Notes: generated by a model from the sequence alone, not told the origin. 64,000 bases of DNA from Desulfobacterales bacterium (GCA_035529735.1 DATKWE010000114.1:2528-66527); one strand, 5' to 3'; positions 9,394 to 43,838 are shown, numbered from the stretch's first letter. Program-made: numbers and translations.

Positions 9394-9468
9394 GCGGGCA
9401 TAACTCAGTGGTAGAGTACAAGCTTCCCAAGCTTGGAGTCGCGAGTTCAAATCTCGTTGCCCGCTCCA
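9394..9468 (+). tRNA. tRNA-Gly (anticodon CCC), CCA encoded
   Basis: Cloverleaf read by eye. Acceptor stem GCGGGCA/TGCCCGC, anticodon loop TTCCCAA, T-arm GCGAG-TTCAAAT-CTCGT, discriminator U, then CCA. Confidence 0.9.
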
Positions 9469-25335: not shown

Positions 25336-28300
25336 TTACATGAACAGTGCACTTTTGATCTGGGCATACAGTTGATTGTTGTCAAACCCCATCAAAGCCG
25401 GCGCTTCGGACGGACACACCGCCGAGCAGGCGCCGCACCCTTTGCACAGGGCCGGATTCACTTCAGCCACAAACGCTTCACTGTTAAACGTAATGGCGCC
25501 AAACGGACAGACATTGATGCACCCCAAACATCCGGAACATAACTCGGGTCGGATATGCGTGATGATACCGCCCAGTTTGACGTATTTCATCGCCAGAACC
25601 GTAACCGCTCTTGCGGCTGCGGCCTGAGCCTGTGTGATGGATTCATCGATGGTCTTGGGGGCGTGGGCCAGCCCGCACACAAAAACGCCGTCCGTGGCAA
25701 AATCCACCGGCCGAAGCTTCACGTGGGCTTCGGCAAAAAAACCGTCGGCATTCAAAGGCACCTTATAAAGCTGTGCCAAAGGATTCTCTGATTCCGTTAC
25801 AATCGCCGACGCCAGAACCAACAGATCGGGATGGATGTCCATCATCCTTCCCAGAACCCGGTCGGTGAAACTCACCTTGAGGCCTTCGTCCCCATTGGTA
25901 ACATTAACATCCTTATCAGCATCGTACCGGATAAAACCGATGCCTCGAGATCGGGCTTCGCGATAGAGATCCTCGCGCAGACCATACGAACGCAAATCCC
26001 TGTAAAGGATAAAAACGTCCATGCCGGGGTTGATCTCTTTCAGGTTCAAAGCACTTTTGATGGATTGGGTGCAGCATACTTTTGAACAGTAGGGCCGATC
26101 CGGTATGCGGGAACCGACACACTGGATAAATACCGCCGTGTTGACTTGGGCAATCGATGGATCGTTGCCAATAAACCGCTGCTGCAACTCCAAACCGGTA
26201 ACGACCCGGGAATCTTGCCCGTATAAATATTGGTCGGGTTTAAACTCCGAAGCCCCTGAAGCGATAAGGGTTACGCCGTGCTCAAGAACCCTGCTATTGC
26301 CGTTGCCGGTGACGGTTGTCTTAAAATTCCCCACAAACCCGTCAACCTGCGTAATGCGAGAATTCAGAAAAATATCAATGGCCGGATCGGACTCCACCGC
26401 ATCGGTCAAGCCTTTTAAATATTCCTGAATATCCTCGCCGCGCCAGGTTTCATGAAGATTCCGCGCCTGGCCGCCGAGAACATCCGATTTTTCAAGCAAA
26501 AATGTCTGATACCCTTGATCCGACATGTTTTTGGCCGCAGCCATCCCGGCGACGCCGCCCCCGATCACCAGAACCGCCTGGTTGACCGCCATGGTCGATT
26601 CTGCCAGGGGCTGGAGTAGAGCCGCTTTGGCCACGCCCATTCTGACCATATCTTTGGATTTTTTCGTGGCTTCTTCAGGATCGTTTTTATGGACCCAGGA
26701 GCACTGGTTGCGGATGTTGGCCATTTCGAACAGGTACTTGTTGACCCCCGCATTGATTAAAGTCTCCTGAAAAAGGGGCTCATGGGTCTTGGGTGTGCAG
26801 GCGGCAACAACCACTCGATTCAGCCGATGCTCTCTGATGACCTCCGTCATTTTCTCCTGGGTGTCCTGGGAGCAGCTGAACATATTTTCCTCCACATAGG
26901 CGACACCGGGCAGGGTCTTTGCAAATTCCACCACTTCGGGAACATCGACGGTCCCCGCGATATTGGTACCGCACCGACACACAAAAACACCGATTCGGGG
27001 CGCCTCACCCCGCACATCCGTCTCTTCCGGAACTTCTTTTGTCTTTGTGAGGGTCCACCGAGACTCGGCCAAACGGCTGCCTGCCACACCCGCAGCAGCA
27101 CTGGAATCGATCACCGAAGACGGAATATCCTTGGGTGCCTGAAAAGCACCACAAACATATACCCCGGACCTGGAGGTCTCAACCGGATCAAAACTGCTGG
27201 TACGGGCAAAGTTGTAATGATCCAGATCGATGCCCCATTTTTTGGCCTGCTCCGCCGTTTTCATGGACGCCGTCAGACCGATTGACAGGACCACCATGTC
27301 AAATTCTTCTTCCACACGCCGGCCGGCCTCGTCCACATATCGGATAAGCTGCATCCCCGACGCTTCATCATGGACAATATTGGTAACCTTTGACTTGACG
27401 AACCGAACACCATGTTCATCCTTGGCGCGGTTGTAGTATCTTTCAAAGTCTTTCCCATAGGTGCGAATATCAATATAGAAAATGGCGGCGTCCAGACCTT
27501 TTTCGCTGTGCTCTTTGGCCAGCATGGCCTCCTTGATGGCATAGGTGCAGCATATCCCGGAGCAGTATCCTTTTGCACCCAGATGGACGTCCCTGGAGCC
27601 GATGCACTGCAACCAGGCGATCTTCTTCGGCTCTTTATGATCCGAAGGGCGTATTAGATGACCGCCAAAGGGCCCCGAAGCGGATAGTATCCTTTCGAAT
27701 TCCAGGGAAGTCACCACATTGGGCTGCTGGGTATAATTAAAGGTGTCGTGCTCTGCAGGATCATACGGTTCGGAACCGGGCGCAAAAATGACGGATCCGA
27801 CCTTAATGTCGACGATTTCATCTTCTTGAGTATGGTCGATGGCATCAACGCCGCAGAACTCCGCACATATCTTACAGCCGCCGGTTTTAAAATGCACGCA
27901 TTGGGTACGATCGATAACCGGCGTATTGGGGACTGCCTGGGCGTACGACACATAGATCGGCTTGCGGCCTTTAAGACCCATCTCGTATTCGGATGGGATC
28001 GGTCTTACATCATCTTTGGAAATGTGGGCTTGAATTTTTTCAAAGGTAATATGCCCGGTGGGACAAACCGAAACACAGGCACCACAGGATAAGCATGCTT
28101 CCGTCTGGATATGGAACGGCGTGTCCACTTTCATGTCCACACCCCTTCCGGTCAGACTGATGGCGCTGTTTCCCATTCTCTCGCAGATTCGGGTGCACAG
28201 TCCGCAAAGGATACAGGTGTCGTCTTCTTTGCTAAAACGAGGCTCTTTGATGTCGTATTTCTCAGCCAGTTCTTTAAGAATTTTCACGTCCGGACATCGG

Positions 28301-28581
28301 GCATACAGCAATTCAATAATAAGTTTGCGAATCTGGTGAATCGCCTCGGTATCGGTTTTTATCTCCATGCCTTCCCAGATCGGGTAGTTGCATGCGGTAA
28401 CGTATCGAACACGTCCACCGAAATGCATTTCCACTGTGCAAAGACGGCACATGCCGGCCGGTTCGAGAGCTTTGTGATGGCAAAGGGTCGGGATTTCAAT
28501 TCCATTTTCTTCAGCAACCTGAAGGAGATATTGGTCTTTCTTTCCCCGGACTTCTTTACCGTTGAGTTTAAAACTGATCAT
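25336..28581 (-). CDS. fusion protein: NuoG-like N-terminus ([2Fe-2S] plus [4Fe-4S]) + C-terminal part of one HdrA module + a complete second HdrA module
   Basis: 1081 aa, with these segments in order:
- CHHKALEPAGMCRLC (2Fe-2S) and two CxxCxxCxxxCP motifs
- KIAWLQCIGSRD...CSGICC
- RIGVFVCRCGTNIAG
- VLVIGGGVAGMAAA
- AVFIQCVGSR...CSKVCC
- a C-terminal 2x[4Fe-4S] ferredoxin. Confidence 0.8.
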   Translation of the reverse strand: MISFKLNGKEVRGKKDQYLLQVAEENGIEIPTLCHHKALEPAGMCRLCTVEMHFGGRVRYVTACNYPIWEGMEIKTDTEAIHQIRKLIIELLYARCPDVKILKELAEKYDIKEPRFSKEDDTCILCGLCTRICERMGNSAISLTGRGVDMKVDTPFHIQTEACLSCGACVSVCPTGHITFEKIQAHISKDDVRPIPSEYEMGLKGRKPIYVSYAQAVPNTPVIDRTQCVHFKTGGCKICAEFCGVDAIDHTQEDEIVDIKVGSVIFAPGSEPYDPAEHDTFNYTQQPNVVTSLEFERILSASGPFGGHLIRPSDHKEPKKIAWLQCIGSRDVHLGAKGYCSGICCTYAIKEAMLAKEHSEKGLDAAIFYIDIRTYGKDFERYYNRAKDEHGVRFVKSKVTNIVHDEASGMQLIRYVDEAGRRVEEEFDMVVLSIGLTASMKTAEQAKKWGIDLDHYNFARTSSFDPVETSRSGVYVCGAFQAPKDIPSSVIDSSAAAGVAGSRLAESRWTLTKTKEVPEETDVRGEAPRIGVFVCRCGTNIAGTVDVPEVVEFAKTLPGVAYVEENMFSCSQDTQEKMTEVIREHRLNRVVVAACTPKTHEPLFQETLINAGVNKYLFEMANIRNQCSWVHKNDPEEATKKSKDMVRMGVAKAALLQPLAESTMAVNQAVLVIGGGVAGMAAAKNMSDQGYQTFLLEKSDVLGGQARNLHETWRGEDIQEYLKGLTDAVESDPAIDIFLNSRITQVDGFVGNFKTTVTGNGNSRVLEHGVTLIASGASEFKPDQYLYGQDSRVVTGLELQQRFIGNDPSIAQVNTAVFIQCVGSRIPDRPYCSKVCCTQSIKSALNLKEINPGMDVFILYRDLRSYGLREDLYREARSRGIGFIRYDADKDVNVTNGDEGLKVSFTDRVLGRMMDIHPDLLVLASAIVTESENPLAQLYKVPLNADGFFAEAHVKLRPVDFATDGVFVCGLAHAPKTIDESITQAQAAAARAVTVLAMKYVKLGGIITHIRPELCSGCLGCINVCPFGAITFNSEAFVAEVNPALCKGCGACSAVCPSEAPALMGFDNNQLYAQIKSALFM

Positions 28582-28624
28582 TGGGTTAACCTTCTTGTGT
28601 CCTGTTTATGTTTTGCAAATGTGG

Positions 28625-30529
28625 CTATTTAATGACGACGGCATTAAACTTACAAGCTTCATAGCAGATGCTGCATTTGATGCATTTCTCCTGATCCAGC
28701 ACGTGAGGCTCTTTTTTCTCGCCGGTGATCGCCTCTTGAGGGCACTTGAGGGCGCACAATCGGCAACCGGTACAGGCTTCCGGATCAATCTCGTAATAAA
28801 AGAGATTTTTACATACACCGGCCGGACATTTTTTATCTTTGATGTGGGCGTCGTACTCGTTACGGAAATAATTAATGGTCGTCACCACCGGATTGGGGGC
28901 CGAAGTCCCTAACCCGCACAGGGATGCTTTGGCGACCATATCGCCCAGTTCTTCAAGGAGTTCGACGTCGCCCTCTGCTCCGTGTCCTTCACAAATGCGG
29001 GTCAAAATTTGCAGCATTCGTTTGATTCCCTCCCGGCAGGGATTGCATTGACCGCAGGACTCCTCTTTCAGAAAATCCAAAAAGTATCGGGCCACATCCA
29101 CCATACAGGTGTCCTGATCCATAACGATCATACCGCCGGAACCCATGATGGAGCCAATTTTTGTCAGTTCATCAAAATCGACGCCCAAATCCAAGTACTT
29201 TTCAGGAATACATCCGCCGGAAGGACCTCCGGTTTGAACGGCTTTGAATTTTTTCTTTTTTAGAACACCGCCGCCGATATCATAAATAATATTCCGCAAT
29301 GTCGTTCCCATGGCGACTTCCACCAGACCGGTATTTTTTATCTTACCGACAAGGCTGAAAACCTTGGTGCCTTTACTGCTTTCCGTCCCCATGCCGGCGT
29401 ACCAATCGGCCCCCTTAGAGATGATGGCCGGAACATTGGCAAAGGTTTCCACATTATTTAGATTTGAAGGATTTTGTCTGAAACCTTTTTCCACTGTATG
29501 CACATATTTGGCCCTGGGCCGGCCCACTTGGCCTTCCAGAGAGGCCATCAGTGCGGTTGACTCACCACAGACAAAAGCACCGGCGCCGGTTGAAATTTTA
29601 ATATTAAAACTAAAATCGGTACCACCGATATTCTCGCCCAAGAGGCCATATTTTTCAGCCTGTTTTATGGCGGTTACCAGACGTTTTACGGCCAGCGGGT
29701 ATTCATTGCGAACATACATAAAACCATGATTGGAACCGATGGCCACGGCTGCGATTAACATCCCTTCCAAGACACTGTGGGGGTCTCCTTCCAGAATGCT
29801 CCGGTCCATATAGGCTCCGGGATCGCCTTCATCTGCATTACAAATAATATATCTTTCGCCGTGATGTCTGGCACACGTCGCCCATTTAACGCCGGTGGAA
29901 AATCCGCCGCCGCCGCGGCCCCTTAAGCCCGAATCTTTAATTATTTGAATAATCTCTTCAGGCTTATGATCCAAGAGCGCACGAAAAAGGGCAAAATACC
30001 CCCCCCGGGCGATATACTCCTCAATGCTATCCGGATCGATATAGCCGCAGTTACGCAACGCAACTTTCACCTGATTGTTATAAAAAGACGTATCTTCTAA
30101 AAACGGAATCTTCTCTATGGGCTCGATTCCCCCGAGAGGATTCTCAAGATGGTCTTCCAATACACTGCGGGGATCACGAACCTGCCCTAAGATCCATTTG
30201 GTTTTTTTGAAATCGTTTTCAAGATAACTGCGAATAACATCGACAATCTTATCTTGGGTGATTTTTTGATAAATAACCCTGGGTTTGCCGGTTTCAGCAA
30301 TTTCGACCAAAGGTTCAACTTCACAAAAACCGATGCAACCCGTCTGTCTGATTTGGACGCCATTTCCATCGGGAAACTCCTGTATGGCCTTTTCAAACGC
30401 AGCCTTACCACCGGCCGCAATACCGCAGGATGCCATTCCGACGAGAACTTTGGTCGTATCGGGATAATAAAGTCTAGTGCTGTATTCCTGACGAATCTTT
30501 TCTAACTCTTCCGTAGATTGGATTTTCAT
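28625..30529 (-). CDS. NuoF-like FMN/NAD(H)-binding subunit (HydB/Bfu-type), with an N-terminal thioredoxin-like domain and a C-terminal 2x[4Fe-4S]
   Basis: 634 aa with GRGGGGFSTGVKW, ESCGQCNPCREG and C-terminal CTGCRLCALKCP / CIKCSICYEAC. Confidence 0.85.
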   Translation of the reverse strand: MKIQSTEELEKIRQEYSTRLYYPDTTKVLVGMASCGIAAGGKAAFEKAIQEFPDGNGVQIRQTGCIGFCEVEPLVEIAETGKPRVIYQKITQDKIVDVIRSYLENDFKKTKWILGQVRDPRSVLEDHLENPLGGIEPIEKIPFLEDTSFYNNQVKVALRNCGYIDPDSIEEYIARGGYFALFRALLDHKPEEIIQIIKDSGLRGRGGGGFSTGVKWATCARHHGERYIICNADEGDPGAYMDRSILEGDPHSVLEGMLIAAVAIGSNHGFMYVRNEYPLAVKRLVTAIKQAEKYGLLGENIGGTDFSFNIKISTGAGAFVCGESTALMASLEGQVGRPRAKYVHTVEKGFRQNPSNLNNVETFANVPAIISKGADWYAGMGTESSKGTKVFSLVGKIKNTGLVEVAMGTTLRNIIYDIGGGVLKKKKFKAVQTGGPSGGCIPEKYLDLGVDFDELTKIGSIMGSGGMIVMDQDTCMVDVARYFLDFLKEESCGQCNPCREGIKRMLQILTRICEGHGAEGDVELLEELGDMVAKASLCGLGTSAPNPVVTTINYFRNEYDAHIKDKKCPAGVCKNLFYYEIDPEACTGCRLCALKCPQEAITGEKKEPHVLDQEKCIKCSICYEACKFNAVVIK

Positions 30530-30552
30530 ACTCTTATCTCGTATCTTTAGTT

Positions 30553-31056
30553 TTATTCGTAATTTTCCAAGATTTTTTCAACTTTATCCGCACCGATTCG
30601 ACCGTAAATGTCTTCGTTAACCTTCAGGACCGGCCCCAGGCTGCAGCAACCGATGCAACGCACACCTTCGAGGGTAAACCGCATGTCATCCGTGGTATGC
30701 TTGCCGTCGAGGTTTAAAGTATCCTCAATTCTTTCACGTACCCTTTCACCGCCTCTGACGTGACAGGCAGTGCCCAAGCAGATGGAAATAATGTTTCGGC
30801 CTTTGGGTTCAAGACTAAACGTGGCGTAAAATGTGCCGACACCGTAGATCTGGCTGTAAGGAACGTTTATTTTTTCTGAAAGATATTTTAAGGTGGGCTG
30901 GGGAAGGTGGTTGTAACGCTTTTGAATCGCCTGGAGGATCATAATCAAGTTTTCTTTGTCATTGTCAAACTCTTGTTCGATGATCTTGTCGAGTTCCAGG
31001 TAATCGATTTCTACTTCGGCACACGGTTCTGTTGTTGATGGACTTACTTTATTCAT
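30553..31056 (-). CDS. NuoE-like [2Fe-2S] thioredoxin-fold subunit (HydC/Bfu-type)
   Basis: CLGTACHVRGG...CIGCCSLGPV. Probable ATG at 31056 after AGGA; the ORF is open from a TTG at 31065. Confidence 0.8.
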   Translation of the reverse strand: MNKVSPSTTEPCAEVEIDYLELDKIIEQEFDNDKENLIMILQAIQKRYNHLPQPTLKYLSEKINVPYSQIYGVGTFYATFSLEPKGRNIISICLGTACHVRGGERVRERIEDTLNLDGKHTTDDMRFTLEGVRCIGCCSLGPVLKVNEDIYGRIGADKVEKILENYE

Positions 31057-31080
31057 TCGCAACAATCCTTATCACAATGG

Positions 31081-31476
31081 TTATGCTTGATCAGCAGACA
31101 TTGGGCAGTAGATGACCGGACAGTTTTCCACGCAACTGCCGCACCCGGTACAACGGTCCATATTGATACTGCGCGCTCGCTTTCTGACTCTCACCGTGAG
31201 GTTTCCTTCCTCGCCGGAAATATCTTCCACTTCTGAGAGGGTGATTAATTCGATGTTGATGTGCCGGCCGACCTCGACCAGTTTGGGCGAGATAATTCAC
31301 ATGGCACAGTCATTGGTTGGGAAGGTCTTGTCAAGCTGCGCCATCATCCCGCCGATAGCCCCGGACTTTTCAACGAGGTAGACATAAAAACCGGCATTGG
31401 CCAGATCCAGAGCCGACTGCATTCCGGCGATGCCACCGCCAACCACCATTACGGCACCTGTTTTTTTATTCGACAT
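31081..31476 (-). CDS. HdrA N-terminal fragment (FAD Rossmann fold plus the first half of the inserted ferredoxin), with selenocysteine at the in-frame TGA 31297-31299
   Basis: AGGAG-N6-ATG at 31476. Read-through product of 131 aa: [131 protein letters not shown]. HdrA-like sequence continues in frame after the TGA. Confidence 0.7.
31264..31281 (-). promoter_or_regulatory. candidate bacterial SECIS hairpin
   Basis: CUGGUCG-AGGU-CGGCCGG: a 7-bp stem including G-U pairs, with a GGU-containing apical loop. It begins 15 nt 3' of the UGA. Confidence 0.5.
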
Positions 31477-32353
31477 TTTCTGCTCCTGTATTAAAAAAAG
31501 AAGTGATATTCGTGATATCAAGCTGGTTCATATCGATTCCCAACGTCTTTTCATCGATACCCATACACAGACCGAGGAGCTGTGGATAAATAATTGAGGC
31601 AAGGGCTTCATTGCCAGTTTGGGAGATCATCATTTTCTGCACCGTATCAAATTGCAAATGACACCACGGACAGGCGGCGCACAGATAATCGGCGCCGGCT
31701 TTCTTTCCATTGGCCAGTTTCTTTTCGGTTAAATTCATTGAAAGATCATCGTTCACACCCATTACCGGGGCACCGCAACATTCCAGCTTGCTGAGATAGT
31801 CCACGCTTTCGGCCCCCGTGACCTCCACGAGCTTGTCAAATATAGACGGGGCAACCGGATCATCAAACTGAGTAACATCGCTGGGGCGAAGGGCATGACA
31901 TCCATAGTGGGTGGCAATTTTGAGTCCTTTATAGGCGTTGGAGATATTGCGCTCTAGGGTATCCAGCCCCACATCATGATAGAGCACTGAAAGAAAATGC
32001 TTCACCTCGGCGTTGCCTTCATACCGCATGCCTTTTTCTGCAAGCAATTTTTTGATCTCTTCCTGAAGATCTCCGTCTTCCTTCAAGAAGTGTTCCGCTT
32101 CCTTCAGGCTGCCAAAGCAACATTTACACAGGGTCATTATATTGAGCCCGAATTTTTCGGCCCACGCCAGATTTTCCGATGCAGACAGGAGAAATGCCTT
32201 TTGGTCAAAATTGCGAACCGGATATCCACAGCATTTAAAATCCCGGATATCGACAAGCTGAATACCCACCTGCCGCATAACCGCCCGGGCAGCGGTTTCA
32301 AACTGAACGACCCTGGCGGGTATATTACATCCCAAAAATAATGCATATTTCAT
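31466..32353 (-). CDS. HdrB-like CCG-domain subunit
   Basis: 295 aa with two CCG motifs (KCCGYPV, ECCGAPV). Overlaps the next gene's start by 11 nt. Confidence 0.8.
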
Positions 32354-32389
32354 AATGATATCCTCTTACTTTGGTCGTATTTCATTCTT

Positions 32390-34171
32390 TCAAACTGCTT
32401 CTGAGACAGCCGTGTCGTCTTCTGAAGGTTTGCGCGCATTTTCAACGGCAAGATTTTTTAATTGATATAAAATATCCGTCACCTTCACATTCTGGGGGCA
32501 GTGCTCCTGACATTGATAACAGGTCACACAATCCCAAATCATCCGCGGACCGGTTGCCATTTCAGTCAGACCCAATCCGAGACAGTTCATAATCTGATGC
32601 GGCAGAAGGCCCAGAACCTCCTGAGGATTGTCGTAGTTGATCACCACGGGACACACCGTGGTGCAGTTCTGACATCCAAAGCAATAGGAAAATGTAACGG
32701 CACCCGGAAGTCGATTCACAAGGTTGCTTTCACGGTCTTTAAGCGAGATGGGTGTGCTCTTGTCCATGACCTTCTCGAAATTGCCGGCAACAACCCGGCT
32801 TGCGTGTTCAACGGGCCTTCGATAATCATCTTCGGCGATATTCTCCCGATTCAGCGCGCGACTGAAGGAAAACGGACTCAGCGTCAAGAGTTCCGGGACC
32901 CCTTTTTGAACCAAATCCTCCCTCACATTGAACCACAACGCTTTAAGATTGATTCCGGACGGACAGACCACCGTGCATCGATCACAATTGGTGCACAAAT
33001 AAACCCCCTCCTGAATGGCGCGTAATTTCTCATGGCTCAGGTCTTTTCCTTTGGCTAGTGTTTTCAGAAACGTCATCTTCTCTGAAGGGAGTATGTATTC
33101 ATTGCCCAGGACATCAAAAGCCGTGGAGGCAGAGCATCGCAGGCTGCAGGTGCCGCAATGGGTACAGGCATCCAATTCCATGGCCTGTCTTGTGGCGATA
33201 TTTATTGGGTCTGATCGTTCCGTGTCCATGACCGCATTGGCCAGAAGACTTACGGGCGTCGCTATGATATGGAACATCTTGGAAAACGGGAGATAGGCCA
33301 AACCGATAAAGCATGCCAGGAAATGGATATACCAGAGGATATTCGAGGTCCCCGCACGATCAAGGCCCAGGGCCACCGGTGTGATGATTTTGGCAAACGT
33401 ATAGCCTGTAAAAGCCCATTTGGGCGAAGAATGGCATTCTGCACAGTTGGCTTCGTGGCTTTCCATGCCCTGTTCCAAAATCTCCTCTTCAAAAGGCCCT
33501 TCGACATTCGGGGAGACAACGTCAAAATTTTTAACCCAATAGCTTTCAAGGGCCGCTATTTCCTCTGCATCATCCTCTTCCGTGAGACCGGCATAATCGG
33601 TCACCATATCCTGAAATTCAGTATGAGATGTAATTTTAGCCCCTTCCAGCATGATGCCGGAAAACATAATGACCACCAGAATAAGGATTGCATAGTGATC
33701 CATGGCGTTGGTTTTAAGGCGGGGGACTTTAAAAATGAACCGGCGGAGTACAGCTATAGCGATACCTATAATCACCATCAAGCCGAAAAAATCCCTCAAA
33801 AACATAAATGGATTGACGGTTGAATAGTAATCGGAAAACAGTTTTGCAGTGATAAAGTTTTCCAGGGCATGCATCAGGAGCAGGAGCATAAATCCGGCGT
33901 ATATGAGCATGTGCATCAGCCAGCGTGTAAAATCTTCTTTCAAAATCCTTCGTTGCAAAACAACATCGAGGATAAATACTTTCACCAAGATCAAGATTTT
34001 TGAGCTGAAAACAACACGGGCGATTCCTTTGACGGATGCGGACAAACGCTGGGAGGGTGTATAATCCCGGGCTGAAATACCGATTTTCATCGAACACCAC
34101 GTATAAAACTTGTAAATCAGACCCAGGGCGAAAATAATAAGTGAAATATAAAGAAGCGTATTAAAAACCAT
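32390..34171 (-). CDS. membrane-anchored fusion: NarI/HdrE/DsrM-like multi-TM domain + two HdrC-like 2x[4Fe-4S] ferredoxin domains
   Basis: About 5-6 predicted TM helices in the first 320 aa, followed by CTHCGTCSLRC, CTNCDRCTVVCP, CFGCQNCTTVCP and CVTCYQCQEHCP. GGAGG-N7-ATG at 34171; the ORF track starts at a TTG at 34186. Confidence 0.7.
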   Translation of the reverse strand: MVFNTLLYISLIIFALGLIYKFYTWCSMKIGISARDYTPSQRLSASVKGIARVVFSSKILILVKVFILDVVLQRRILKEDFTRWLMHMLIYAGFMLLLLMHALENFITAKLFSDYYSTVNPFMFLRDFFGLMVIIGIAIAVLRRFIFKVPRLKTNAMDHYAILILVVIMFSGIMLEGAKITSHTEFQDMVTDYAGLTEEDDAEEIAALESYWVKNFDVVSPNVEGPFEEEILEQGMESHEANCAECHSSPKWAFTGYTFAKIITPVALGLDRAGTSNILWYIHFLACFIGLAYLPFSKMFHIIATPVSLLANAVMDTERSDPINIATRQAMELDACTHCGTCSLRCSASTAFDVLGNEYILPSEKMTFLKTLAKGKDLSHEKLRAIQEGVYLCTNCDRCTVVCPSGINLKALWFNVREDLVQKGVPELLTLSPFSFSRALNRENIAEDDYRRPVEHASRVVAGNFEKVMDKSTPISLKDRESNLVNRLPGAVTFSYCFGCQNCTTVCPVVINYDNPQEVLGLLPHQIMNCLGLGLTEMATGPRMIWDCVTCYQCQEHCPQNVKVTDILYQLKNLAVENARKPSEDDTAVSEAV

Positions 34172-34288
34172 ATGGAAGACCTCCAAAATTTAGCTAAAAG
34201 AATCGATTGCTCTAACTCTGATTTTTCATGGAGTTGAATTTGCTTCTGTAACGACCGATTAAATTAAAATCGACTTCCAAAGCAATTT

Positions 34289-34317: not shown

Positions 34318-34462
34318 ATAATAATTGATGAATTTGTTACAGATATTGTCGCGCCGTTAAATGGTTGAGCTGTTAAGCCATTGATATCATGTTAATATAT
34401 TGATTTTTAATGGAATTTTGACATTCATCGTCTTGAAGAATATCCCACAATGAATTATCGAC

Positions 34463-34661
34463 AAATATTCCCCGAATCAATTGTTTGACCATTCAACTGT
34501 TTGACGATGGCGGCAATGAACGACCCCGAAGCAGGCTGAAAGGGGGTCCCAAATCGGTCAATAAATATTCCCCGAATCAACTGTTTCCCGTTCAACTGTT
34601 TGACCATGGCGGTAATGAACGACCCCGAAGCAGGCTGAAAGGGGGTCCCAAATCGGTCAAT
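34463..34661. repeat. tandem direct repeat, 2 units (100 bp + 99 bp, about 93 percent identical)
   Basis: Read directly. Each unit holds two copies of TCAAYTGTTTGAC-like 13-mers and a GACCCC(N14)GGGGTC hairpin. Confidence 0.9.
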
Positions 34662-34705
34662 TTGTATTCCATCGACGCAAGATCCGGGCGAAAAACCCAT
34701 CCAAA

Positions 34706-35425
34706 TTAAATCACGGTTTTAATCTCTTGGGCAATTCGAACCGCCGCCGCCTTTGGATCCTTTGCATCTCTGATGGGACGGCCGATCACAAGATAATCGG
34801 ATCCATCTGAAACCGCCCGGGCCGGTGTTGTTATTCGCCGCTGGTCATGTTTCCCCGTCACATCCCATTCGGGTCGTATCCCCGGGGTCACCGCAATAAA
34901 GTCGCGCCCGAAGTGTTCTTTAATAATTTTAACTTCGAGCCCCGAGCAGACGATGCCGTTGCAGCCGGCCGCTTTGGCCATGGCCGCCCGTTTCACCACC
35001 AGCCGACCCATGTCGTCATAAAACATTTCCCTGAACCCGGAGGCTTTAATGTCTTCACTGGTGACACTGGTTAAAACCGTAACCCCAAGGATGCCGACCC
35101 GCCCTTTGGCCCCTTCAACCGCAGCTTCGAGCATCCGGGGAGTCTCGCCGCAATGAACCGTTGTAAACGCAATACCTAAATCTGCGATTCTCTCCATAGC
35201 GCGAAAAACCGTTGCCGGAATATCATGAAGTTTCAGATCCAAAAACACTTCGGCGGTCCCGGAAGCTTTTATAAAATCGATTATTTCAAGACCGGATCGG
35301 ATGAAAAGCTCCAGACCGACTTTGAACATTCCCACCGATTCCGAAAGCAGTTCCACATAGTGTTGGGCGGTCTTCACCGACGGAACGTCCAGGGGAAAAA
35401 CGATGTAATCTTTGGCATGTTTCAT
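34706..35425 (-). CDS. pyrF: orotidine 5'-phosphate decarboxylase
   Basis: 239 aa, with the motifs VFPLDV, FLDLKLHDIP and VIGRPI. Confidence 0.85.
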   Translation of the reverse strand: MKHAKDYIVFPLDVPSVKTAQHYVELLSESVGMFKVGLELFIRSGLEIIDFIKASGTAEVFLDLKLHDIPATVFRAMERIADLGIAFTTVHCGETPRMLEAAVEGAKGRVGILGVTVLTSVTSEDIKASGFREMFYDDMGRLVVKRAAMAKAAGCNGIVCSGLEVKIIKEHFGRDFIAVTPGIRPEWDVTGKHDQRRITTPARAVSDGSDYLVIGRPIRDAKDPKAAAVRIAQEIKTVI

Positions 35426-36620: not shown

Positions 36621-38042
36621 ATGAACCTAACAGAAAAACAGCAGACCCTTTTGCGAATGCTTCCCGCAGTGGATTACATCCTTGAGCTGGCAAAGGCAGA
36701 TTCTTTGTTCGACAATGTCCCAAAATCTGTTCTGGTTCGCTCCATCCGCTCTGTTGTTGAAAATCTTCGGATGATTATCCTAGAGGCCCCACAGGATCTC
36801 ACACAGACAGACCTGTCCGACGCCAACATCCTTAAAAAGATCAAAAACAGTGTCAAAAGAGCCATGACGCCGATGCTTACCCGGGTCATCAACGCCACGG
36901 GCGTTGTGGTACATACCAACCTCGGCCGATCGTTACTTTCGGACGATGCGGTGCAGAACCTTCTGTCCATTGCATCCGGGTATTCCAATTTGGAATTCGA
37001 TCTATCAAAAGGGATGCGAGGTTCCAGATACAGCATTGTTGAAGATATTCTGTGTGAAATAAGCGGCGCTGAAGCGGCCATGGTGGTCAACAACAATGCC
37101 GGAGCCGTCTTTCTATCTTTAGAAACCCTCGCCAAAGATAAAAAAGTGATTGTTTCCAGGGGAGAACTGGTGGAAATCGGGGGGTCATTCAGGATCCCCG
37201 ATGTCATGGCCAAAAGCGGCGGGATATTGAGGGAGGTAGGGACCACAAACCGTACGCACCTTAAAGACTATGAAAATGCCATCGAGCACGATACCGCCCT
37301 TCTCTTAAAAGTCCACAAAAGCAATTACAGTGTCGTCGGCTTTACCGCCGAAGTCTCTCTTGAAGCGCTGGTTGCTCTGGGCGCAAAATATAAGATCCCG
37401 GTTATGGAAGATCTCGGCAGCGGAACCTTTGTAGATTTTTCAAAGTACGGTCTGTTAAAGGAGCCCACGGTTCAGGAATCTGTTAAAGCAGGCGCAGACA
37501 TTATCACGTTCAGTGGAGACAAGCTCCTTGGCGGACCCCAGGCAGGCATCATTTTAGGCAAAAATGACCTCCTTATGAAAATCAAAGAAAATCCCATTAA
37601 CCGGGCGCTTCGTATCGACAAACTGACCCTTGCAGCACTCGAAAGCACCTTGCGGCATTACAGAAACATAGACAGGGAAATGGATTCCATTCCAACACTG
37701 CGCATGTTGACCCTTTCTTTGGCGCATATTGAATCAAAAGCAAAAACACTTGCCAAGATGCTCGAAAATATCAGCGATACCCGATTGTCTGTAGATCTCA
37801 TCGACACATCCTCGAGACCCGGCGGCGGTTCTCTCCCGCTTTTAACACTCCCCAGCAAAGGTGTGGGCGTCAAGGTCCGGGGAATCTCTGCCAATGCGGT
37901 GGAAGAACAGATGCGGAACCATGAACTCCCCATCATTGGAAGGATCGAAGAAGATCTCTTTATCATGGATCTTAGAACCATACTTGATGACGAACTGCCG
38001 ATCATCCAACATGCTGTTGAACACATGCTGAAAAAGGCCTGA
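36621..38042 (+). CDS. selA: L-seryl-tRNA(Sec) selenium transferase
   Basis: 473 aa with the PLP-lysine motif FSGDKLLGGPQAGII and a SelA-like N-terminus. Confidence 0.9.
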   Translation: MNLTEKQQTLLRMLPAVDYILELAKADSLFDNVPKSVLVRSIRSVVENLRMIILEAPQDLTQTDLSDANILKKIKNSVKRAMTPMLTRVINATGVVVHTNLGRSLLSDDAVQNLLSIASGYSNLEFDLSKGMRGSRYSIVEDILCEISGAEAAMVVNNNAGAVFLSLETLAKDKKVIVSRGELVEIGGSFRIPDVMAKSGGILREVGTTNRTHLKDYENAIEHDTALLLKVHKSNYSVVGFTAEVSLEALVALGAKYKIPVMEDLGSGTFVDFSKYGLLKEPTVQESVKAGADIITFSGDKLLGGPQAGIILGKNDLLMKIKENPINRALRIDKLTLAALESTLRHYRNIDREMDSIPTLRMLTLSLAHIESKAKTLAKMLENISDTRLSVDLIDTSSRPGGGSLPLLTLPSKGVGVKVRGISANAVEEQMRNHELPIIGRIEEDLFIMDLRTILDDELPIIQHAVEHMLKKA

Positions 38043-41156: not shown

Positions 41157-41387
41157 ATGCCGATTTACGAATATCATTGTGATACATGTGAAAAAGATTT
41201 TGAACGTCTGGTTTTTGGAAACGAAAAGCCCGTTTGCCCGACATGTCACAACAAAAAAGTCAAAAAAATCATGTCCGCATGCACCTTCTATAGTAAAGGC
41301 AGCCATGGTCAAACGGTTAATGCGGCTGCGTCGGCATCATCTTGTGGTGGATGTTCAGCGACCAGTTGTTCGAGCTGTAGTCACTGA
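41157..41387 (+). CDS. FmdB-family zinc-ribbon protein
   Basis: 76 aa, MPIYEYHCDTCEKDFE...CPTCH, with a Cys/Ser-rich tail. Confidence 0.8.
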   Translation: MPIYEYHCDTCEKDFERLVFGNEKPVCPTCHNKKVKKIMSACTFYSKGSHGQTVNAAASASSCGGCSATSCSSCSH

Positions 41388-42334
41388 TGGAAAAAACACT
41401 CAAAATAGGAACCCGGGGCAGCAAACTCGCACTCTGGCAGGCAAACTGGGTTAAATCTGAGCTGAATACCCGGCACCCTTCCCTTTCAGTTGAACTTGTC
41501 GTCATAAAAACCAAAGGGGACAAGATTCTCGATGTACCGCTTGCCAAGGTCGGCGGAAAAGGACTTTTTGTAAAAGAAATCGAAGAAGCGCTTTTAAACG
41601 GCCGCATAGACCTTGCGGTACACAGCATGAAGGATATGCCGTCGGAAATACCGAAAGGGCTGTGCATCGGCGCAATTCCCAAGCGCGAAAATCCGCAAGA
41701 TGTTCTAATTTCAAAAAAAGGACTGCCCCTTTTCCAACTTGAACCCGGCGCCATGATCGGAACCAGCAGTCTTCGTCGTGCCGCTCAGCTTCTCCATGCC
41801 AGACCGGATCTGTGTATATTCCCCCTCAGGGGGAACCTGGACACGCGCCTAAAAAAGCTCGAAACTGAAAATTTTGATGCCATCGTTCTGGCCGCCGCCG
41901 GTGTAAAGCGCTTGGGTCTTGAAAACAGAATAACCGAATTCCTCGACGAAAATATTATGCTTCCGGCCGTTGGCCAGGGTGCCCTTTGTATCGAGATCCG
42001 ACAAAATGATCCCGAGGTGGCGCCGATGGTCGCCAAACTTGAGCACCGTCGAACAAGAGCAATCATCCTGGGTGAACGTGCCTTTTTAAACCGCCTTGAA
42101 GGCGGCTGCCAAGTCCCGATTGCAGCCCACGGAAAAATCGACAACACCCGATTTACCCTTTGCGGTCTTGTGGCCACTGTCGATGGAAAAACCCTCATCA
42201 AAGAGACCTTTTCAGGGCCTGAAGGTTCGGCCGAAACCATCGGCGTAGAACTTGCCGATCACCTGGTTTCCCTGGGGGCGAAAACCATAATGGAAAACCT
42301 TAAATCTGATCTGGATCTAAACCATGAACGGTAA
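41387..42334 (+). CDS. hemC: hydroxymethylbilane synthase (porphobilinogen deaminase)
   Basis: 315 aa with IGTRGSKLALWQANWV and SLRR motifs. Start overlaps the fmdB-like stop (TGATG). Confidence 0.9.
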   Translation: MEKTLKIGTRGSKLALWQANWVKSELNTRHPSLSVELVVIKTKGDKILDVPLAKVGGKGLFVKEIEEALLNGRIDLAVHSMKDMPSEIPKGLCIGAIPKRENPQDVLISKKGLPLFQLEPGAMIGTSSLRRAAQLLHARPDLCIFPLRGNLDTRLKKLETENFDAIVLAAAGVKRLGLENRITEFLDENIMLPAVGQGALCIEIRQNDPEVAPMVAKLEHRRTRAIILGERAFLNRLEGGCQVPIAAHGKIDNTRFTLCGLVATVDGKTLIKETFSGPEGSAETIGVELADHLVSLGAKTIMENLKSDLDLNHER

Positions 42335-43838
42335 AGTCTATCTGGTCGGTGCCGGACCCGGTGATCCGGAGTTGATCACCGTAAAGGGATTGGAATGCAT
42401 CAAGAACGCCGATGTCATTATTTACGATTATCTTGCATCTCCAAGTCTGTTAAAACATGCCCAAGCGCACGCTGAAATCATCTATGTCGGGAAAAAAGGA
42501 GGAGATCACACCCTTTCCCAGGATAGAATCAATGCGCTGATCGCGGAAAAAGCCCAAAAAGGTTTTACGGTCACCCGACTGAAGGGCGGCGATCCATTTA
42601 TATTCGGCCGTGGCGGCGAAGAAGCAGAGGTGCTGATCGACGCCCGAATTCCTTTTGAAATTATCCCCGGTGTCACTTCAGCCATCGCCGCTCCGGCCTA
42701 TGCCGGCATCCCGCTGACACACCGAAAATTTACCTCCACAGTCGCTTTTGTCACCGGACATGAAGACCCTGCGAAAGCGGAATCGAGTATCGACTGGGCA
42801 GCACTTGCCAAGGGGATTGGAACCATTGTCTTTCTCATGGGCGTCAAAAATCTTCCGCATATAACAGACCGCCTCATGCACCACGGTATGCCCCCGGATA
42901 CCCCGGTTGCGCTCGTCCGCTGGGGAACGACCCCCAAACAAACCACTGTTTCAGGAACACTCGATACCATTGTCGAACGCATAAAAGCCGCCGGTCTCAA
43001 ACCGCCGGCCATTATTGTTGTGGGTCATGTTGTAAAATTAAGAGAAAAAATGCAATGGTTTGAAACCCGGCCTTTGATGGGACAATGCATCGTGGTCACC
43101 CGAGCCAGAGAACAGGCCAGTGACCTGGTCAAATGTCTTTCCGATCTGGGCGCCGAGTGTCTCGAATGCCCCACCATAAAAGTTGCCCCGCCGGAGGATG
43201 TAAAACCATTGGACAGGGCCATCGAAAACCTTTCATCTTATAACTGGCTGATCTTTACCAGCGTCAACGGCGTTAACTTCTTTTTTGAGCGGCTTTTTCA
43301 AAAAAACAAAGATGTCCGTGCCTTAAAAGATATCCATACGGCAGTTATCGGTCCGGCAACAGAAAAAAGACTGTTTGATTTTGGGCTCAAAAGCGATATT
43401 GTCCCCGAAAGCTACCGGGCCGAGTCTGTGGTCAAGGCATTCGCCGGAAAAGATGTAACCGGGAAAAAGATACTGCTGCCACGCGCAAAAGAGGCAAGGC
43501 CGGTGCTGCCGTTGGAATTGAAAAAGATGGGCGCCGTTGTTGACGAAGTAGCGGCATACCGTACCCTTGCGGTCAAGGACAACGCCGATGTTCTATCGAC
43601 ACGTCTCAAAGAACGATCCATAGATATGATCACATTTACAAGCTCTTCCACCGCAAAAAACTTCCACGCCCTTTTCCCGACCGAAGATCTAAAGGATCTG
43701 ATGCAGGGCGTCACCATCGCCAGCATCGGTCCCGTTACCGCCGATACCGCACGAGACCTGGGATTTGACGTCCACATCGTTGCAAAATCCTACACCATAC
43801 CGGGACTGTGCGAAGCAATTCTATCCCATTTCAGCTGA
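42324..43838 (+). CDS. cobA: bifunctional uroporphyrinogen-III C-methyltransferase / uroporphyrinogen-III synthase
   Basis: 504 aa. The N-terminal half is a SUMT domain (VYLVGAGPGDPELITVKG). The C-terminal half is HemD-like. Confidence 0.85.
   Translation: MNGKVYLVGAGPGDPELITVKGLECIKNADVIIYDYLASPSLLKHAQAHAEIIYVGKKGGDHTLSQDRINALIAEKAQKGFTVTRLKGGDPFIFGRGGEEAEVLIDARIPFEIIPGVTSAIAAPAYAGIPLTHRKFTSTVAFVTGHEDPAKAESSIDWAALAKGIGTIVFLMGVKNLPHITDRLMHHGMPPDTPVALVRWGTTPKQTTVSGTLDTIVERIKAAGLKPPAIIVVGHVVKLREKMQWFETRPLMGQCIVVTRAREQASDLVKCLSDLGAECLECPTIKVAPPEDVKPLDRAIENLSSYNWLIFTSVNGVNFFFERLFQKNKDVRALKDIHTAVIGPATEKRLFDFGLKSDIVPESYRAESVVKAFAGKDVTGKKILLPRAKEARPVLPLELKKMGAVVDEVAAYRTLAVKDNADVLSTRLKERSIDMITFTSSSTAKNFHALFPTEDLKDLMQGVTIASIGPVTADTARDLGFDVHIVAKSYTIPGLCEAILSHFS

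Follow-up and report, generated by a model that had tools for sequence, protein, structure and literature searches.

A 64,000-nt stretch of DNA from a Desulfobacterales bacterium (GCA_035529735.1 DATKWE010000114.1:2528-66527; hereafter the window, which means the whole of this stretch) carries six adjacent minus-strand genes across positions 34171 to 25336, in which proteins related to heterodisulfide reductase (Hdr) are combined with relatives of NuoE, NuoF and NuoG. The comparisons presented here support an hdrA gene interrupted by a nuoE-nuoF-nuoG(N-terminus) cassette, so that HdrA is divided between a 131-aa selenoprotein and the greater part of a 1081-aa protein, two pieces that would have to reassemble. 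Domain identities, the split and its conservation, the evidence for selenocysteine (Sec) and the boundaries of the cassette are all established by sequence comparison. Flavin bifurcation of the HdrA type has a central place in anaerobic energy metabolism, and we regard the chances as evenly balanced that the six genes encode a membrane-anchored, NADH-linked, HdrA-type bifurcating complex with its flavoprotein in two pieces and a Bfu module inside the gene. A broader proposal is more tentative: the four genes from the small open reading frame (ORF) to the large gene, here called the four-gene unit, might represent an unrecognised and widespread Desulfobacterota class of 'Hdr-Bfu' double-bifurcation complexes, combining 1) a flavin site and a 2x[4Fe-4S] domain each made of two polypeptides; 2) an exchangeable NAD(P)H cassette; and 3) one of several arms, namely HdrE/C-HdrB, soluble HdrCB, or Flx-like proteins with DsrC. 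The parts of the cluster are as follows.

32390-34171, minus strand: HdrE/HdrC-like membrane subunit (Pfam Nitrate_red_gam, Fer4_8 and Fer4_9; HdrC match; hydropathy)
31466-32353, minus strand: HdrB-like subunit with two CCG domains (Pfam CCG, E 4.6e-24; HdrB alignment)
31081-31476, minus strand: 131-aa selenoprotein, N-terminal piece of HdrA module 1 (alignment to 5ODC_A)
31297-31299, minus strand: in-frame TGA at codon 60 of the small ORF, selenocysteine (TGA in 60 Sec-type loci)
31264-31281, minus strand: hairpin resembling a selenocysteine insertion sequence (SECIS) (synonymous-site constraint)
30553-31056, minus strand: NuoE/HydC/BfuC-like subunit, thioredoxin-like with [2Fe-2S] (PF01257, E 3.7e-46; 167-aa public gene call)
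28625-30529, minus strand: NuoF-like flavoprotein of BfuB type, 634 aa (Pfam Complex1_51K, NADH_4Fe-4S and two Fer4; matches to solved chains)
25336-28581, minus strand: 1081-aa protein (Pfam; phmmer against PDB)
28042-28581, minus strand: NuoG/BfuA/BamI-like N-terminus, residues 1-180 of the 1081-aa protein (Pfam Fer2_4, Fer4_7)
27022-28005, minus strand: rest of HdrA module 1, residues 193-520 of the 1081-aa protein (5ODC_A alignment; unsplit homologues)
25336-27021, minus strand: HdrA module 2, residues 521-1081 of the 1081-aa protein (5ODC_A alignment)

Searches of Pfam and of solved structures back every one of the gene assignments, and ORFs and Pfam matches agree on the gene order given in the initial annotation of this DNA (hdrE/C, hdrB, 131-aa Sec piece, nuoE, nuoF, 1081-aa gene). 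Intergenic gaps within the cluster are 9 to 43 nt, which supports a single complex, and the spacing between hdrB and the 131-aa ORF is only 9 nt. The most likely starts of hdrE/C and nuoE are the ATG at 34171, as given earlier, and the ATG at 31056, respectively.

One HdrA module on two polypeptides

The split was mapped by phmmer searches of PDB sequences, with the solved HdrA chain 5ODC_A as reference. Residues 8-121 of the 131-aa piece correspond to 5ODC_A 145-258 (E 5.8e-41) and residues 195-448 of the 1081-aa protein to 5ODC_A 260-506, an exact continuation of the small piece. With the one alignment ending at 258 and the other resuming at residue 195, equivalent to 260, two earlier claims are upheld: the small piece stops inside the inserted-ferredoxin region, and the large protein opens with a NuoG-like N-terminus before HdrA resumes. 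The small piece holds the beta-alpha-beta unit that binds flavin adenine dinucleotide (FAD), with its GxGxxG motif (GGGIAG), a C57-x2-U60 pair and the first CxxCxxCxxxCP motif of the inserted ferredoxin domain (C109, C112, C115 and C119), and ends in a variable 10-aa tail. The second Cys motif of that domain (C228, C236, C239 and C243) lies on the 1081-aa protein. An inserted 2x[4Fe-4S] domain with two Cys motifs, as in HdrA, is thus present in module 1 through the contribution of both pieces, and a thioredoxin reductase-like FAD domain with an N-terminal GxGxxG is found there only when the two polypeptides are taken jointly. The initial annotation had held that the idea of a split would fail if the 1081-aa protein had a complete Rossmann N-half of its own for module 1; it has none, and its sole GxGxxG (GGGVAG, residue 674) lies inside module 2.

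In a 2x[4Fe-4S] ferredoxin fold, each motif supplies three cysteines to one cluster and one to the other. Given that pattern, and ligands divided four and four between the pieces, the two proteins would have to come together, and each cluster of the inserted domain would draw ligands from both of them across the subunit interface. The FAD of module 1 would likewise be held by the Rossmann unit of the small piece and the body of the domain on the large protein. U60 aligns with Cys197 of 5ODC_A, which we take from the published structure to lie at the [4Fe-4S] cluster beside the flavin, and C326, C340, C344 and C345 of the 1081-aa protein align with the ligands Cys386, 399, 403 and 404 of 5ODC; the position of U60 and those of these four cysteines are invariant in 52 sequences. 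Lys350, the equivalent of 5ODC Lys409, is also invariant in module 1 (52/52 sequences), whereas the position in module 2 equivalent to the flavin-N5 lysine varies within the family (K/D/E/T/L and others), which makes the split module the one predicted to bifurcate.

Module 2 aligns in two stretches (residues 526-757 with 5ODC_A 2-234, and 929-1077 with 498-648) and comprises the HdrA N-terminal four-Cys domain, a second FAD domain and a C-terminal 2x[4Fe-4S] ferredoxin domain. It lacks both the inserted ferredoxin domain and the FPTNDCxxC/U motif, so that its earlier description as a second, complete HdrA module has to be withdrawn. The proposal of two HdrA flavin sites survives insofar as GxGxxG is present in both modules, but the lysine of the bifurcating flavin is kept in module 1 only. 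Together, modules 1 and 2 make up a fused HdrA dimer like BamE of class II benzoyl-CoA reductase. AlphaFold2 returned a moderate model of the 1081-aa protein alone (predicted local distance difference test, pLDDT, 71), in which the only long stretch of low confidence is 187-262, the linker and the orphan ferredoxin half; this would fit an incomplete domain, a weak indication given that other iron-sulfur regions of the model also score low. Foldseek searches with this model recovered only HdrA and chain 9MQX_A.

Split, unsplit and inserted forms in related genomes

Database relatives of the large protein with a length of about 1080 aa number more than 100, at identities down to 64%. A scan of species-representative genomes provided 80 loci, nearly all from Desulfobacterales, Desulfatiglandales or Syntrophales, and mapping the six window proteins onto them separated three architectures, with 4 loci too truncated to class: 1) type I, unsplit (19 loci), a single ORF of 1006-1015 aa with TGA at the same codon, in which the sequence of the small piece continues in frame into that at which HdrA resumes; 2) type II, split (50 loci), with small ORF, nuoE, nuoF and large gene; 3) type III (7 loci), an ORF of ~1480 aa with an in-frame insert of ~500 aa between the Cys motifs of the inserted ferredoxin domain, a GltD/NfnB-like NAD(P)H-FAD module by Pfam (Fer4_20 + Pyr_redox_2). 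The type III loci are L032, L033 (L033:9980-14416), L038, L043, L044, L048 and L050, all with Sec at the same codon. Amongst the type I loci, hdrB lies directly upstream in 14/19, 11 of which also have hdrE/C.

These forms allow the junction to be read directly. Unsplit proteins run ...C-x2-CG-x-C-x3-CP-KKVP-x-Y... through it; every small piece ends ...CTGCGxC[VI]E-x-CPV followed by 5-17 variable residues; and in every large protein ...CxxCGxCxxxCPTGHI is followed by a linker of 8-20 residues and then by IPSEYDMGLKGRKPI. Residues 193-520 of the large protein match the unsplit homologues column for column, and in all 28 full-length pairs of small and large proteins that were aligned the break comes at one and the same residue. 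Unsplit homologues that span the junction, along with drops in identity at the cassette edges (below), bear out the reading of a nuoE-nuoF-nuoG(N-terminus) cassette inside hdrA.

The small ORF is visible in 38 type II loci, with TGA in 34, Cys in 2 and a cut by the contig end in 2. The remaining 12 comprise 7 contig ends, 2 cases of masked sequence and 3 in which it is truly absent within 10 kb; it is therefore present in 38 of the 41 loci readable upstream of nuoF, and the possibility, raised at the outset, that it is missing or pseudogenised in otherwise identical loci was not borne out. Many synonymous changes at invariant amino acids point to purifying selection on this ORF. We consider it very improbable that the 131-aa ORF is a non-functional remnant, or belongs to some other partner, and that the large protein works with NuoE and NuoF around an FAD-less module 1 serving as an iron-sulfur scaffold. 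Such a view could appeal to the three loci without a small ORF within 10 kb, L002 and L040 (Desulfatibacillum) and L015 (Desulfatiglandales), two of which (L002, at L002:6529-13234, and L040) also lack nuoE over that distance and have nuoF followed by the large gene, and to the reasonable confidence with which AlphaFold2 models the large protein alone outside 187-262. It sits badly with an ORF that is kept in 38 loci with invariant motifs, abundant synonymous change and a maintained SECIS-like hairpin, and whose identity to the closest relative, L020, tracks that of module 1 (97% and 94%, respectively). Moreover, L002, L040 and L015 retain every cluster cysteine of module 1 and its lysine, which argues for a copy of the small ORF elsewhere in those genomes, as is likely, and not for a dead module.

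Three other explanations were rejected. Firstly, a pseudogene or assembly artefact is ruled out by conservation over 38 loci and by the constraint on the SECIS-like element. Secondly, a split intein or trans-splicing was set aside, the tail of the small piece being 5-17 variable residues and the large protein opening with a genuine NuoG-like domain. Thirdly, a single recent insertion in this genome is discounted by the wide distribution of the architecture; the split is an old and widespread event. As a separate observation, Desulfatibacillum was the sole named, cultured species found with a NuoG-HdrA fusion.

Selenocysteine at the flavin-side cluster

Codon 60 is TGA in each of the 60 Sec-type loci, of which 34 are split, 19 are unsplit and 7 have the GltD-type insert; a Cys codon (TGC/TGT) takes its place in L047 and L053. 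The hairpin CUGGUCG-AGGU-CGGCCGG, with a 7-bp stem and an AGGU loop, begins 15 nt past the UGA. Folding of the single sequence after the TGA gave a minimum free energy no better than that of shuffled sequences (z -0.39), and a Rfam scan of the TGA region returned no SECIS family, only chance matches to long non-coding RNAs. As the single-sequence fold was not significant, conservation at synonymous sites over the 60 loci was used instead. Codons +5 to +11 (AAA CTG GTC GAG GTC GGC CGG) have a synonymous-codon entropy of 0-0.21 bits in the 60 Sec loci, against 0.65-2.4 bits for flanking variable codons whose amino acids are equally conserved. The two Cys-type loci are a natural control for the element: they encode nearly the same peptide (KLVECGRH vs KLVEVGRH) with other codons, and the stem is broken.

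The organism's capacity to make selenoproteins is signalled by selA, which lies ~2.4 kb upstream of the cluster and is not part of the complex:

36621-38042, plus strand: selA, selenocysteine synthase (PF03841 SelA, E 5e-159)

Neither selB, selC nor selD was seen in the window, and tRNA-Sec is absent from it, the sole tRNA there being a tRNA-Gly at 9394-9468. The features expected of a bacterial selenoprotein (UGA at a Cys position, a hairpin and Sec machinery) are nonetheless present together, and support decoding of the codon-60 TGA as Sec. The public gene call (ENA ERZ27256834, k141_432283; L081:4133-4285) ends the small ORF at this TGA after 50 aa and leaves the C-terminal 71 residues, Cys motif included, unannotated, which probably explains why the split went unnoticed.

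The NADH module and its exchange as a cassette

The NuoF-like protein comprises an N-terminal thioredoxin-like domain, a site for flavin mononucleotide (FMN) and NADH, the [4Fe-4S] region of NuoF and a C-terminal 2x[4Fe-4S] domain, and matches over nearly its full length StnB 8OH5_B (5e-215), NiFe-HydB 7T2R_B, NfnB 9N5U_B, HydB 7Q4V_B and 8A6T_B, with E from 1e-177 to 5e-215. It therefore has the BfuB plan (NuoF core, thioredoxin-like domain and C-terminal 2x[4Fe-4S]), with a NuoE-like BfuC alongside. Residues 1-180 of the large protein supply the N-terminal [2Fe-2S] and [4Fe-4S] clusters of BfuA, through a [2Fe-2S] domain (Fer2_4) and two CxxCxxCxxxC motifs at 123 and 163; a motif for a His-ligated cluster was not seen in these residues. 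Residues 14-179 match 9MQX_A (E 8e-38; 39% identity in Foldseek), which the Foldseek table lists as a tungsten aldehyde oxidoreductase that bifurcates electrons. Bifurcation of the Bfu type, between NAD(H), ferredoxin and a third substrate, may be envisaged for this module. The NuoG-like domain is fused straight to the orphan ferredoxin half, and on that ground the Bfu module appears wired to the inserted ferredoxin domain.

Comparison with L020 delimits the cassette. DNA identity is 89-99% across hdrB and the small ORF, falls to 35-79% from 31148 to ~27918 (with one 88% window within nuoF) and is mostly 88-98% over the remainder of the large gene. The block of low identity takes in nuoE, nuoF, the NuoG-like domain, the linker and the start of the resumed ferredoxin domain (residues 1 to ~220 of the large protein), with the drop beginning just before the end of the small ORF and the recovery coming ~30 residues past the resumption of HdrA. 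Because identity falls at the inferred boundaries, the cassette has evidently been exchanged as a unit. Consistent with this, the NuoF proteins divide into two lineages at odds with the HdrA parts, and the window and L020 share 92% identity in their HdrA parts and only ~64% in NuoF. A second mosaic block relative to L020 was observed at 32648-33824, where the membrane and loop part of hdrE/C is 64-75% identical, the 5' end of hdrE/C and hdrB being 87-97% identical.

In a neighbour-joining tree built from 1001 columns of the HdrA parts, with 100 bootstraps and an unsplit paralogue as root, the window and L020 group with the GltD-insert forms at 83% support, with unsplit forms adjoining that group and most split forms placed elsewhere. 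Simple monophyly of the split forms is accordingly not supported, and the tree would be compatible with gain, with loss and with transplant through recombination. As neither the outgroup nor any canonical HdrA protein is split, the split arose at least once; beyond that, either recombination through the hdrA sequence on its flanks carried the cassette from one paralogous gene to another, or cassettes were lost and others took their place. Divergent second tandem-HdrA paralogues lie within a few kb of the first in three loci (L056:14733-17732, unsplit; L066:8754-11753; L049:6667-9663) and could act as recombination partners.

A predicted high-potential arm and its genomic neighbourhoods

The membrane subunit has about six predicted helices and a NarI/HdrE-like region with four His that are invariant in 14 homologues and could ligate two hemes b. 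A CxxCH motif (CAECH; 33431-33445, minus strand; residues 248-252 counted from the TTG at 34186) is conserved in 13/14 homologues within a long loop between helices 5 and 6, which the topology would place in the periplasm; it could mark a point at which this HdrE/NarI-like cytochrome-b subunit binds heme c covalently. The protein also carries two 2x[4Fe-4S] domains, the last of which is HdrC-like (residues 491-585); residues 491-581 match HdrC of solved Hdr complexes (E 2.5e-11). HdrB aligns over its full length with HdrB of 8RVU and 5ODC (5ODC_B; E 1e-66 to 1.6e-67), its CC and CxxC motifs included, and its CCG domains, which in HdrB bear ten Cys for the noncubane [4Fe-4S] clusters, are predicted to house these clusters and to be the site of disulfide reduction. 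The pairing known from HdrBC and HdrDE, a two-CCG HdrB with an HdrC-like 2x[4Fe-4S] partner, is thus present.

This arm is one of several with which the four-gene unit occurs. The hdrE/C-hdrB arrangement of the window is shared only by L020 and L027, and in most related loci the unit stands without it. Its commonest context has a histidine kinase, a sigma-54-type response regulator and a double-receiver protein upstream, and downstream three Flx-like genes (two iron-sulfur proteins and an FNR-like FAD/NAD protein) and dsrC, the last of these adjoining the unit in about ten related loci:

L004:1688-19130, and L003, L014, L021, L022, L025, L026, L028, L041 and L069: loci with the regulator/Flx/DsrC neighbourhood (DsrC PF04358, E 5e-34)

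Elsewhere hdrC-hdrB lies downstream of the unit (five loci) or a molybdopterin oxidoreductase nearby (three loci). A window-wide tblastn search found no genes for DsrC, Flx-like proteins or regulators of the sigma-54 type. Judging by these varied neighbourhoods, the four-gene unit seems to be a portable NADH/HdrA module that can be coupled to more than one kind of high-potential arm. The claim that a quinone-facing membrane anchor is joined to the complex stands as far as the genes adjoin here, but such an anchor is not a universal partner of the unit. The double-receiver protein of L004 (L004:5053-6708) contains two internal repeats, each with a Cys-rich stretch ...C-x-VG-x-MVCDIFKKLGATCKAGTKSGECPQ... 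that has no Pfam match and could be a metal- or redox-sensing element.

The absence of hdrE/C-hdrB beside the four-gene unit in most related genomes might suggest that two unrelated enzymes merely adjoin in the window, one a membrane disulfide reductase (HdrE/C-HdrB), the other soluble (NuoEF-HdrA). We give this very little credence: the unsplit members of the window's own HdrA clade mostly sit behind hdrB (14/19) and hdrE/C (11/19); the 9 nt between hdrB and the small ORF, and their common level of DNA identity to L020 (89-99%), tie the two halves together; and, as is general for Hdr systems, HdrA requires an HdrC-type partner on its high-potential arm.

A proposed electron path

From this gene content we infer an electron path, together with its direction, acceptors and physiological partners, for the proposed six-gene complex. 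NADH would be oxidised at the FMN of NuoF, and electrons would pass through the clusters of NuoE, NuoF and the NuoG-like domain, the last covalently continuous with the inserted ferredoxin domain, to the FAD of module 1, the only one with the conserved flavin lysine, where they would bifurcate. The high-potential electron would travel via the Sec/Cys-associated [4Fe-4S] cluster and the HdrC-like domain to HdrB and the heme-b membrane domain, and its acceptor would be menaquinone, a carrier in the periplasm, or the disulfide or trisulfide of a protein such as DsrC; the low-potential electron would leave through module 2 and the C-terminal ferredoxin domain to ferredoxin. The net reaction, which would be reversible, is 2 NADH + 2 Fd(ox) + acceptor = 2 NAD+ + 2 Fd(red) + reduced acceptor. 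In favour of the proposal we count the sister clade, in which the same ferredoxin domain takes a GltD/NfnB-like NAD(P)H module.

Several points weigh against the proposal. The complex would be one recognised here from its genes. In HdrA and BamE the inserted ferredoxin domain is a low-potential output and not an input (bioRxiv 10.64898/2026.04.10.717634), and the proposed direction may for that reason be wrong. An MvhD/BamF-like adaptor is not encoded in the cluster. The membrane arm, being missing from most related loci, is not a fixed partner of the four-gene unit, and neither is the small ORF found within 10 kb in L002, L040 and L015. Lastly, the full set of Bfu clusters in NuoF suggests that ferredoxin binds there as well and that the role of the module goes beyond plain NADH oxidation.

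Comparison with characterised systems

To our knowledge, the one-megadalton benzoyl-CoA reductase is the only characterised enzyme that joins Bfu-type and HdrA-type modules, and the BamDEFGHI electron module of this class II enzyme is the closest characterised system to the window cluster. The initial annotation found no characterised enzyme to which the cluster could be assigned; that holds for its variant form, but the joining of Bfu-type and HdrA-type modules already has a precedent in class II benzoyl-CoA reductase. In the parts of the two sources considered here, BamGH and BamI ([2Fe-2S], 2x[4Fe-4S]) of Geobacter metallireducens constitute a NADH/ferredoxin module of Bfu/HydBC type (bioRxiv 10.64898/2026.04.10.717634; PMC9304861). 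BamE is a fused HdrA dimer that bifurcates to BamD (HdrBC/HdrD-like) and the tungsten enzyme; its bifurcating FAD lies in the N-terminal thioredoxin reductase module with the flavin-N5 Lys280, its second FAD is non-bifurcating, and a Cys59-Cys62 pair lies in the low-potential path (bioRxiv 10.64898/2026.04.10.717634). Both systems have a Bfu-type NADH module, a fused HdrA dimer and an HdrB-type partner, and, judged by published residue positions and not by alignment, C57/U60, K278-280 and module-2 position 770-775 of the unsplit relatives (1006-1015 aa) correspond to Cys59-Cys62, Lys280 and Gln768 of BamE. Differences are equally clear. The window cluster is without the BamBC tungsten enzyme of aldehyde oxidoreductase type and without a BamF/MvhD adaptor, BamBC and BamF domains being absent from the six cluster genes and from ORFs in 21.6-38 kb (the rest of the window was only sampled). 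Its BamI-like domain is fused into the flavoprotein, whereas in Bam it is a separate subunit feeding the C-terminal ferredoxin domain. The flavoprotein is split into 131 and 1081 aa, with Sec in place of the second Cys of the pair, and HdrB comes with a membrane cytochrome-b subunit, whereas class II benzoyl-CoA reductase is soluble and uses an electron-transferring flavoprotein.

This precedent invites a different wiring, one that we judge unlikely: the Bfu module would confurcate NADH and reduced ferredoxin to about -400 mV and the FAD of module 1 would re-bifurcate, with one electron passing to HdrB and the membrane and the other to a very-low-potential acceptor docked at the C-terminal ferredoxin domain. 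Besides the Bam example itself, and a tandem HdrA collinear with BamE, it could draw on the complete BfuB architecture of NuoF, which is closest to solved bifurcating enzymes, and on a BfuA-like domain whose cluster set is that of BfuB clade 45, including Bam-Bfu, in the part of Schut et al. 2022 (PMC9304861) considered here. However, the operon offers neither a tungsten enzyme or other low-potential reductase nor a BamF/MvhD adaptor, and the BamI clusters feed the C-terminal ferredoxin domain of BamE, whereas the BamI-like domain here is fused to the inserted one.

QmoABC resembles the proposed membrane-anchored complex in having two HdrA-like flavin modules and a fusion of an HdrE-like cytochrome b with HdrC (Ramos et al. 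2012, PMC3333476), and it has been proposed to bifurcate or confurcate with the quinone pool (PMC3333476). It differs in lacking HdrB and a NADH module, in having two separate flavoproteins and in its linkage to aprBA; the window cluster has HdrB and no apr genes next to it. It is decidedly unlikely, in our view, that the cluster runs in a confurcating or reverse mode akin to that of Qmo or DsrMK, in which electrons from menaquinol or a periplasmic cytochrome and low-potential electrons would together reduce the substrate of HdrB or NAD+, lifting quinol electrons to cytoplasmic acceptors. The subunits do resemble QmoABC plus HdrB, confurcation with a NADH dehydrogenase or ferredoxin has been proposed for Qmo (PMC3333476), the inferred periplasmic loop carries the conserved CxxCH on a subunit with four invariant His, and dsrC adjoins related four-gene units; but aprBA, dsrC and Flx-like genes do not adjoin the window cluster. 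This mode is the thermodynamic reverse of NADH-driven bifurcation, and sequence alone cannot separate the two.

FlxABCD-HdrABC of Desulfovibrio vulgaris reportedly has a NADH module feeding the flavin of HdrA, with bifurcation to ferredoxin and, via HdrBC, to DsrC said to have been proposed. NADH enters there by the FNR-like FlxA with FlxBCD and not by a Bfu-type NuoEF(G), HdrA is a single, unsplit module, and there is no membrane subunit. HdrL, a 'heterodisulfide reductase/glutamate synthase fusion', is a large Sec-containing HdrA-like protein with its own NAD(P)H module (PMC2702500), and the type III loci fit its published description, a likeness drawn from that description and not from comparison with HdrL1-3. 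In HdrL that module is an in-frame domain, whereas in the window the gene is interrupted by a three-part Bfu cassette, encoded separately, at a point ~35 residues upstream of the GltD-type insertion; by Pfam, the window proteins have neither Fer4_20 nor a GltD-type Pyr_redox_2 insert. Type 1 Bfu enzymes (NfnABC, Stn; PMC9304861, in the part considered here; PDB 9BOV, 9N5U, 8OH5) share a BfuBC core and a BfuA iron-sulfur N-terminus fused to a third-substrate domain, with the difference that the third-substrate domain in the window is most of a bifurcating HdrA dimer and incomplete without the 131-aa peptide. No Hdr-Bfu class is named apart from Bam-Bfu in the part of Schut et al. 2022 (PMC9304861) covered here, and nuoEFG beside hdrA and mvhD has been noted in Desulfotignum genome papers. 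No published description of the split, or of a fused NuoG-HdrA protein, was found in a search that did not take in Appel et al. 2021 or Pereira et al. 2011, the likeliest sources.

Significance for sulfate reducers

If the proposal of an Hdr-Bfu class is true, such complexes could be a main route by which complete-oxidising sulfate reducers connect their NADH and ferredoxin pools with the quinone pool and with sulfite reduction. The window system would offer a simpler and far more widespread setting than benzoyl-CoA reductase in which to consider coupled Bfu and HdrA modules. Its 14-kDa selenopeptide would hold a dinucleotide-binding fold, a redox-active Cys/Sec pair and half a ferredoxin domain, and the presence of parts of the bifurcating site on separate polypeptides could be exploited experimentally. 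Unsplit, GltD-inserted and Bfu-split forms all make use of the inserted ferredoxin domain, which may be seen as evolution's plug site for NAD(P)H modules. Gene callers miss the small selenoprotein ORF, and models built from sulfate-reducer genomes would consequently miss this link.

Other features of the window

About 7 kb from the cluster, at 41387-43838 on the plus strand, lie hemC and a cobA/hemD fusion for tetrapyrrole and siroheme synthesis, with no evident link to it. The gap of ~530 bp between pyrF (34706-35425) and the start of hdrE/C contains two tandem copies of a 99-bp unit (34463-34661; 94% match), which could be a regulatory repeat upstream of the cluster, and an 81-aa mechanical ORF at 34455-34700 that is probably an artefact of it.

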